NCBI GenBank assembly: GCA_965261245.1
Contig: OZ253446.1
Span: forward strand, 2,069,587 to 2,133,586
Direction: 5' to 3'
Length of the DNA stretch: 64,000 nucleotides
Origin: Spirochaetia bacterium
Lineage (GTDB): Bacteria > Spirochaetota > Spirochaetia > G963692905
Positions 61,005-61,360 of this stretch are shown here, piece by piece. Under the pieces are notes generated by a model, which saw only the letters and a program-made list of their open reading frames with translations, did no database searches and was not told the origin of the DNA. Both the position numbers and the translations under genes were made by a program. Position 1 is the stretch's first letter. Each line of letters begins with the position of its first letter.

Positions 61005-61360
61005 AGATTTAGGAGGGGGCACCGCCCCCTCGCTGCAGCCAGCGTGCCCCGCCTGCTCGCGCAGGCAGGGCACCAGTGCGCTAACCCGCGCGAGCGCGGG
61101 TTACGGGCTCACTCCCGCTCGCCCGCCGCGCACTTCGCTTGCTTACGCTACCCCCGTCACAGTTGTAAAGATATTAAGTCATAAACAGACATAGCAATTC
61201 CTAATGCGCCGCGGAGCGGCGCCAACAAGCAGACGCTACCCCCGTCGCTTTTGTAAGAATATTAAGTCATAAACAGATACAGCAATCCCAAATGCGCCGC
61301 AGAGCGGCGCCAACAATAAGTCATAAACAGAGATATAGCAATTCTTAATGCGCCCAGCGT
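61005..61360 (+). repeat. Modular intergenic repeat: head type 2 followed by about three tandem ~80-bp units
   Basis: Units CGCTACCCCCGTC.C...TTGTAAAGATATTAAGTCATAAACAG alternate with hairpins TAATGCGCCGC.GAGCGGCGCCAACA. Confidence 0.65.

Follow-up and report, generated by a model that had tools for sequence, protein, structure and literature searches.

A Dispersed Branched-Hairpin Intergenic Element in Spirochaetia

Seven Copies of One Element in 64 kb

The spirochaetal DNA analysed here, a 64,000-nt stretch of a bacterial chromosome with 56.8% GC (hereafter the window), carries between its genes seven copies of a branched-hairpin element of 88–131 bases. We put at about one in two the probability that the element is dispersed, acts through its G-rich strand in folded form, is probably transcribed, has its own weak terminator and is recognised via the helix formed by its ends. 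The original prediction had named six intergenic sites, and the repeat was found at every one of them. A gapped pattern derived from the conserved part matched six times in the window against 0.00 expected (100 shuffles), and GGGGGTAGC occurred 13 times against 1.02 expected. The covariance model R1, built from six full-length copies, recovered all six cores and added a seventh, at 2295–2420, which was absent from the earlier list (Table 1). Every copy in the window lies between Pfam-supported genes or long ORFs. Some copies are spanned by ORFs of 106–122 aa (33688–34056 on the plus and 33491–33811 on the minus strand of the window; 13802–14146 in L019); these are almost certainly spurious, and the one in L019 is called as a gene in its source annotation. 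Element copies thereby inflate ORF calls, and they are likely to break assemblies.

Table 1. Positions in the window of the element cores, their terminal (head) hairpins and their tails.
Feature	Positions	Strand	Description and support
Seventh core	2295–2420	+	R1 81.9 bits, E 8.8e-15; fold z-score -5.69
Head hairpin, seventh copy	2416–2433	+	GGGGGGCGGAGCACCCCC, then UCUUAUAUUUUU
Head hairpin, site 1	7560–7577	-	
Core, site 1	7573–7660	-	Minimal form (originally 'type 1'): P0, P1, P3, P5; R1 39.2 bits, E 6e-06
Tail remnant, site 1	7661–7740	-	Degenerate; C-like module at 7651–7688
Head hairpin, site 2	17280–17296	-	
Core, site 2	17292–17418	-	Full form; R1 106.9 bits; ortholog alignment with L015
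Head hairpin, site 3	23658–23674	-	
Core, site 3	23670–23757	-	Minimal form; R1 41.3 bits
Tail, site 3	23748–23885	-	One C+D unit (D 23809–23829), then a variant unit ending GTCTCCCACGCGG
Tail, site 4	33690–33942	+	Variant C unit, spacer, D hairpin (33782–33802), second variant unit
Core, site 4	33934–34021	+	Minimal form, identical to 23670–23757; R1 41.3 bits; inverted repeat
Head hairpin, site 4	34017–34033	+	Followed by UCUUUGC, then the TTGACG-17-TATACT promoter-like site of the neighbour gene
Tail, site 5	46820–46956	+	One C+D unit (D 46876–46901) and a variant unit
Core, site 5	46948–47067	+	Full form; R1 110.4 bits; folding
Head hairpin, site 5	47063–47079	+	Flanked by more poly-C/G tracts
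Head hairpin, site 6	61015–61029	-	GGGGGCGGUGCCCCC; core 3' G-run and downstream C-run
Core, site 6	61025–61155	-	P0, P1, P3, optional P2 and P4, conserved P5; R1 110.4 bits; folding, alignments
Tail, site 6	61145–61352	-	Two tandem 88-nt units and a partial third

The genes of the window are largely those of ordinary housekeeping (LeuRS, MetRS, a HisZ-HisG fusion, TatD, pyruvate kinase, a sigma-54 activator, holB, CvpA, MurG), accompanied by several large cysteine-rich repeat proteins with DUF7107, Dickkopf_N-like, WAP, GLUG and TSP_3 matches (59–2230, 8343–11294, 26074–28716, 43591–46041, 47164–52930). The genes of the latter family have internal periods of 96, 117, 123 and 174 nt, and 995 nt at 27395–28389 recur inverted, at 85% identity, at 43789–44783. 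The closest other relative of the window's TatD is only 73% identical; the relatives that carry a name are MAGs of Spirochaetia or Spirochaetaceae. Contigs of a related strain, about 93% identical to the window, are present in ENA ERZ26694059 and encode the Treponema families TP_0437 and CfpA_C. The GC-skew profile of the window mainly follows gene orientation and yielded no information on replichores.

Two rve_3 transposases are encoded in the window. One belongs to an IS of 1190 bp (55767–56956; transposase 55805–56848, minus strand), which is 100% identical at at least five other sites of the related strain, and the other to a distantly related IS at about 12271–13437 (transposase 12325–13323, minus strand). 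In L022, from the related strain, the 1190-bp IS is inserted in the interval from tRNA-Met to the site-1 element, which in the window is free of it. The identical copies and this insertion indicate that the 1190-bp IS is active.

Fold and Covariation

The anatomy is described here on the G-rich strand. The original prediction had the reading direction and anatomy reversed: the conserved functional unit consists of what it took for the middle of the head together with the CGCTACCCCC motif, on the opposite strand. The element starts with 5'-GGGGG-UAGCGNAAG and closes with CUGSAGCGA-GGGGG-3', its two ends pairing as the terminal helix P0. Stem P1 encloses a junction with the optional hairpin P2 and stem P3, and P3 encloses the conserved hairpin P5 (GGCGGGCG...GAGCCCGU, with GA/GA internal loops) and the optional hairpin P4. 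The two head types that had been distinguished proved to be a single fold, with P2 and P4 in type 2 and merely without them in type 1; two further copies, L027 and L049, have an extra optional hairpin. The GC-rich head hairpin does exist, yet not as part of a head. It is a separate terminal hairpin at the 3' end of the G-rich strand, in which the last G-run of the core pairs with a downstream C-run; 36 of 42 copies of the family have such a hairpin.

That the hairpins differ in sequence and remain complementary, as had been proposed, was confirmed by folding and alignment. When 14 distinct sequences were aligned to R1, pairing held in 96.7% of cells, as compared with 30–41% in slid controls; changes on both sides occur in 30 of the 38 pairs, and none of 500 shuffles reached the observed values. 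RNAalifold classed 22 of the 38 pairs as compensatory. The cores at 46948 and 61025 have P1 and P3 in common, while their P2 and P4 hairpins are wholly different, and the site-2 core differs from its ortholog in the 93% strain (L015) by compensated substitutions in P1, P2 and P5. The element family thus combines covariation with modular stems of variable length, as structured RNAs do. As far as the alignments tell, sequence, length and hairpin number can all change in the interior as long as pairing is preserved.

The Terminal Helix

What the whole family has in common are only the termini, 5'-GGGGGUAGCGNAAG...CUGSAGCGAGGGGG-3', and the closing stem; the interiors differ. Across 45 distinct termini the helix formed by the two ends reads, in order, U-A, A.G (44 of 45), G-C, C-G (43, the remaining 2 being compensated to G-C) and G.A (44), continues with a covarying pair (U.G in 20, G-C in 14, C-G in 2), A.G (44) and A-U, and ends on the inner side with G-C or U-A (40 and 5), A.G (35) and a freely covarying stem. 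Four purine-purine mismatches (A.G, G.A, A.G, A.G) are therefore kept in 44, 44, 44 and 35 of the 45 termini, with covariation in the neighbouring pairs, and GTAG at the 5' foot is invariant even where the next bases change with compensation. The seventh copy is the sole one in which the mismatches are replaced, its terminal helix being fully Watson-Crick (GGUGGAG/CUCCACC). Mismatches fixed in this way would imply a specific partner molecule.

The invariance of the G5 ends in the metagenome copies is partly built in, because the search patterns demanded them. The 3' G-run was nevertheless kept in the matches of the first scan and in the window copies found by the model, where the pattern had not demanded it.

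Spread of the Family

The repeat is not confined to the window, in agreement with the original prediction; copies were found in Spirochaetia MAGs and at 39 metagenome loci. In the scan of the genome collection true matches came only from Spirochaetia MAGs (four CBDCPJ01 loci, Spirochaeta sp. LUC14 and OY843583, the last locus having 40% GC), and the other matches, from genomes of very high GC content and not fitting the refined pattern, were rejected as chance ones. The 39 metagenome loci, with a GC content of 32–62%, were collected with the two termini only. Their copies score only 26–40 bits with the window-type model because the interiors are built differently on the same termini and closing stem. 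Copy length in the family is 88–189 nt, and most metagenome copies have a hairpin GGGGCGUUGCGGGG-N4-CCCCGCAGA immediately upstream and a GGGGG-AGRCUU-CCCCC hairpin downstream. A first metagenome scan and a viral scan, both with a pattern that included the P5 hairpin, gave no matches, and this hairpin is specific to one subfamily. BLAST against plasmid and phage collections returned no match to the element.

Copy number is uneven, with seven copies in the 64-kb window versus none in the 20 kb around tatD of the genome with the 73%-identical TatD; the holB homologues are too divergent for comparing the orthologous gap at site 6. Judged from these matches, the family is scattered through many Treponema-like spirochaetes.

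Gene Setting

The element is a discrete unit. In an all-versus-all comparison of the loci, similarity between unrelated contigs ended 0–63 nt upstream and 0–30 nt downstream of it, as illustrated by L004 and L007 of one MAG (95.5% identity over 133 nt) and by L032 and L064 (90% over 130 nt). Its neighbours are ordinary, unrelated genes (tRNA-Met, TatD, fatty-acid hydroxylase, holB, RecG, beta-galactosidase and others), and clustering of the ORFs within 3.5 kb of 44 copies revealed no recurrent family beyond near-identical loci. Mapping relative to gene ends placed the 31 copies that have two callable neighbours mostly in divergent (11) and tandem gaps (8 co-oriented, 11 anti-oriented) and almost never in a convergent one (1 of 31), and there is no orientation preference relative to the neighbouring genes. 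Promoter-like sites of neighbour genes were found beyond the element (TTGACA-17-TATATT for tatD, TTGACG-17-TATACT at site 4). The original description of the repeat as intergenic, abundant, structured and modular holds.

Clusters of G6–G8 (or C) tracts occur beside head hairpins at 7510–7570, next to tRNA-Met, and at 47080–47115, about 50 nt upstream of the TTGACA promoter-like site of a cysteine-rich surface-protein gene. Poly-G tracts modulate tpr promoters in Treponema pallidum, and by analogy these homopolymer tract clusters could be phase-variable.

Tails, Breakpoints and Mosaicism

The C and D modules of the original prediction do form a tandem tail unit, of 88–89 nt, but at sites 1 and 2 only degenerate remnants of it are present. 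Each unit at site 6 consists of GGGGGUAGC, the C module and the D hairpin (GCGCCGC-N3-GCGGCGC), and TRF assigned to 61145–61316 a period of 88, 2.0 copies and 88% matches. The site-3 ortholog in the related strain (L015) has a period of 89, 5.4 copies and a higher-order period of 176 nt. All the 88–89-nt units begin with GGGGGGUAGC (end with it, on the G-rich strand). Besides the D hairpins given in Table 1, others lie at 43553–43573, 61202–61227 and 61290–61315. Among the loci examined, the C and D modules are confined to this lineage. An isolated D-type hairpin (GCGCCGCCCACGCGGCGCCAA; 43540–43620) directly precedes a near-consensus TTGACA-18-TATAAT of the gene at 43591.

Relative to the related strain, the window loses synteny within the tail of site 3, at that of site 1 and at a second repeat family. 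In a group of metagenome loci, 96%-identical sequence stops 2–6 nt before GGGGGUAGCG, and beyond the break lie different restriction-modification/defence genes or an IS3 transposase. This break is partly a matter of divergence and not a recombination junction, because the upstream hairpin is present but divergent (L043/L050). The junction motif GGGGGUAGC stands at the head of the tail units and of the second repeat family as well. The elements and their tails are found at strain breakpoints next to cysteine-rich surface-protein genes and may therefore shape surface variation.

The second repeat family, structured and about 160 nt long, occupies 13462–13644 (minus), 28899–29016 (minus) and 43145–43302 (plus) in the window and also occurs at about 19843–20018 in L015, 8306–8463 in L022 and 5997 in L023. 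Like the element, it starts with the CGCTACCCCC junction motif. Its hairpin arms covary (GGCGGGCGC-AAA-CGCGCCCGCC versus GGCAGGCGC-AAA-GGCGCCTGCC), and two copies are followed by 21–23-nt tandem repeats (13628–13707, 43084–43143). The distance from the site-1 tail to this repeat is 1.3 kb in L022 and about 5.8 kb in the window, and by BLAST nothing in the 1.3-kb region matches the cysteine-rich genes that the window has there. More short repeat modules with recurring GTCGAAGCCCC-type motifs fill the intergenic stretches 46620–46840, 43320–43480 and 28780–28880, and a 23-nt tandem repeat lies at 46755–46810. A small ORF at 23948–24301, with a weak DUF5798 match and six 21-nt tandem repeats (24032–24156), is contained in a segment of about 420 nt that is duplicated at 81–87% identity (23905–24675).

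Upstream of the element in L036, L044, L042 and L028, a motif GGGGCGUU(A/G)CG precedes successive different hairpin modules. This suggests that a G-run, a short tag and a hairpin may form a general grammar of Treponema intergenic repeats. On termite-gut contigs the intergenic regions of the element also hold other structured modules and genuine TD-2 motifs. The tails, the breaks and the hairpins held in common therefore indicate a pool of hairpin modules that recombine into mosaics. This agrees with the mosaic repeat put forward originally.

Comparison with Known Systems

At gathering thresholds, Rfam 15 matched only tRNAs in the window and only unrelated TD-2 copies in 20 metagenome loci; a permissive search yielded chance-level matches (P9 at 23 bits, microRNA models) and a sub-threshold overlap with TD-2, and the HEARO model had no match in the window. 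No description of the element was found in the literature searched, and the repeat family appears to be undescribed. The closest precedents are the TD-1 and TD-2 motifs of Treponema denticola, and the functionally closest analogues are elements of the REP/BIME, BOX and attC type, which act as a folded strand.

TD-1 and TD-2 are multicopy, structured intergenic motifs with no function assigned; in 2007 they were known from T. denticola alone (Weinberg et al. 2007, PMC1950547). They resemble the element (TD-1/TD-2: Rfam RF03162, clan CL00124) in covariation, in modular stems of variable length and in the lack of a coherent gene association, and the hairpin GGAGUUUUGC...GCAAAACUCC is common to TD-2 and the termite-gut subfamily. 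Nevertheless, the TD-2 model scores 18.6 bits at L047 against a gathering threshold of 48.7, there is no TD-2 match in the window, the conserved ends (G5 runs and AGCG helix) are different, and the element, unlike the T. denticola-only motifs of 2007, spans MAGs and metagenome contigs with a locus GC of 32–62%. Genuine TD-2 copies do occur elsewhere on the same termite-gut contigs as the element, for example at 7544–7641 and 11529–11629 of L031 (77.8 and 58.8 bits). In L031 and L034, as well as in the IMG/VR UViGs L065 and L067, TD-2 has a compact terminase-portal-capsid cluster as its neighbour; the element is present on these contigs too, and IMG/VR classifies them as viral.

The likeness to BIME/REP sequences drawn in the original prediction stands as a loose analogy. 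Both are abundant extragenic structured repeats with GTAG at the 5' foot of a hairpin; both are strand-specific, mosaic with other modules, and free of terminal inverted repeats and target duplications. REPs, however, are single imperfect palindromes of 20–40 nt tagged by GTAG or CGTC, whereas the element is a branched structure of 88–189 nt, and there is no sequence similarity between them. A weak test, tblastn with an IS200 TnpA query, revealed no gene for a RAYT, the Y1 HUH transposase that REPs typically flank, in the 614 kb examined. REPs lie mainly at the 3' ends of genes, unlike the element, which is almost absent from convergent gaps. The BOX elements of Streptococcus pneumoniae (boxA, boxB repeated n times, boxC) are likewise intergenic and modular, with a variable number of tandem units and a stable predicted fold. 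Their variable module is inside the element, whereas here the tandem units lie outside the folded core and in one lineage only; the sequences are unrelated.

With attC sites (57–141 nt) the element shares conserved ends whose pairing gives an imperfect helix of constant irregularities, a variable or branched centre, a similar length, a single folded strand and a structure kept more than its sequence. It differs in having no RYYYAAC/GTTRRRY boxes (its termini are GGGGGUAGCG... and ...AGCGAGGGGG), no cassette arrays, the copies being single, and no nearby integrase, and in its location between housekeeping genes. The arrangement of an ORF plus element in L043, L050 and L051 was considered as attC-like cassettes and rejected, the upstream hairpin being merely divergent, and so was the 1.1-kb insertion in L051, which has no element motif at its ends. 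Finally, the dRS3/RS and Correia elements of Neisseria are also mosaics of short modules built at a short conserved junction motif, near surface-protein genes and rearrangement breakpoints; Correia elements have terminal inverted repeats and TA duplications, both of which the element lacks, and sequences and architecture differ.

Strand and Mode of Action

Several features point to the G-rich strand as the probable active one. In the window-type alignment G.U outnumbers A.C on this strand 19:1 (10:1 without one conserved pair), and U.G stands at helix position 11 in 20 of the 45 termini. The conserved mismatches are purine-purine on the G-rich strand and pyrimidine-pyrimidine on the other, and the loops on the former are mostly of the GNA or GNRA type, which appears on this strand only. 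The sequence after the terminal hairpin contains 44% T against a background of 26.5%, T is the first base past the C-run in 24 of 35 copies, and L012 ends in a textbook terminator (GGGGGCGACUGCCCCC-UUUUUUU). These T tracts are short, and they are absent from most window copies; the folding z-scores do not favour the G-rich strand and are mostly better on the C-rich one. In the termite-gut subfamily an unbiased count gave a ratio of G.U to A.C of only 3:2, with stems about 97% Watson-Crick, and pairing this close to perfect is as compatible with maintenance of the DNA itself as with selection on RNA. The strand tests do not separate RNA from single-stranded DNA.

In the reading to which we gave an even chance, the element is a branched hairpin closed by the terminal helix with its four near-invariant purine-purine mismatches, bracketed by G5 runs and followed by the short GC hairpin built from the 3' G-run. 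A trans-acting protein may read the conserved end-helix; the unit would be copied whole into intergenic regions that contain promoters, from where it would probably be transcribed, with the terminal hairpin serving as a weak terminator. In the lineage of the window it has multiplied to seven copies in 64 kb and gained tandem tail units of about 88 nt, each of which re-uses the GGGGGUAGC junction motif and which could expand and contract by unequal crossing-over. Against this reading, the conserved unit yielded no promoter, no partner protein or autonomous copy was identified among the loci examined, and among those compared no filled-versus-empty pair at an orthologous site was captured.

Alternatively, the element could be purely a mobile element or recombination site at the DNA level, working as folded single-stranded DNA in the manner of REP/RAYT, IS200/IS605-derived miniature elements or attC, with any RNA effects incidental. 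An unseen HUH or tyrosine recombinase would then recognise the GTAG-containing foot and cut or join at the GGGGG/UAGC boundary. We consider this possible though doubtful. The copies have no terminal inverted repeats, with G5 at both ends on the same strand, and no target duplications, the flanks of the near-identical L004 and L007 included; the units are discrete and strand-specific in structure, in keeping with such a mechanism. The invariant GTAG, the nearly perfect stems with their C(GNA)G triloops, the homology that stops just 5' of GGGGGUAGCG with other defence genes or a transposase beyond, the synteny breaks in the tails and the re-use of GGGGGUAGC at the head of tail units and of the second repeat family are all in its favour. 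However, neither tnpA, tnpB nor iscB, as expected of an IS200/IS605-derived element or a TnpB/IscB guide-RNA scaffold, lies next to any of 44 copies, and no Y1 or other candidate enzyme was detected there or in the 614 kb examined, in the latter by the weak tblastn test with an IS200 TnpA query. Moreover, the copies form no arrays and have no attC R-box motifs, their orientation in the window is mixed (three plus, four minus), the T-rich tracts and GNRA loops point to RNA, and the L043/L050 break is in part divergence. Other origins by transposition were rejected: a DDE-derived MITE does not agree with the lack of terminal inverted repeats and target duplication, and both rve_3 IS elements of the window have ends unrelated to the element. 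The element is a piece neither of the IS elements present nor of a prophage, in line with the original prediction.

It is unlikely that the copies are genuine trans-acting sRNA genes or protein-sponge RNAs with a host function, duplicated by ordinary means and transcribed from an outside promoter to their own terminator. The covariation, the modular optional stems, the conserved internal-loop purines and the terminator-like 3' hairpin would all fit, and Treponema TD-2, judged a likely non-coding RNA, provides a precedent. In the termite-gut subfamily, an alternative pairing between the 5' segment and an internal segment covaries with P1, which suggests RNA folding dynamics. On the other hand, no conserved promoter was found inside the conserved unit, and a sigma-70 promoter scan of site 6 found nothing. 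By eye, the C module of site 6 has a TAATAT box about 16 nt before the 5' G-run, with a poor -35 and 15-nt spacing; this box is not conserved in other genomes, and the idea of the C module as a promoter was dropped. Close copies have unrelated flanks, which ordinary duplication does not easily yield, and copy number is very uneven between relatives. A CsrA sponge, considered for the GGA motifs in P5, was rejected, as the minimal copies lack these motifs.

Many copies precede a gene in the same orientation, and one subfamily has the alternative pairing, but a cis-regulatory leader (riboswitch, attenuator or thermometer) of the downstream gene is highly improbable, being contradicted by the orientation and gene-content data: the 5' position is not consistent, the downstream genes are functionally unrelated, 11 copies are antisense to both neighbours, and the promoter-like sites of the downstream genes come after the element.

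Significance

Most Treponema-like spirochaetes of termite guts, the rumen and other anaerobic environments remain uncultured, and little of their non-coding DNA has been charted. The partner of the terminal helix, once found, would bring to light a new small-RNA system or else a new means of DNA movement. It is conceivable, if rather unlikely, that the G5-bracketed AGCG/AGCG mismatch helix is the recognition site of an undescribed enzyme acting on a folded strand, whether a recombinase or transposase or an RNA-guided or RNA-binding system. If so, it would represent a new class of folded-strand mobile or recombination sites in Spirochaetia, comparable in principle to attC and REP. Sites of this class would both seed arrays of modular repeats and mark where variable islands with surface-protein and defence genes begin and end.
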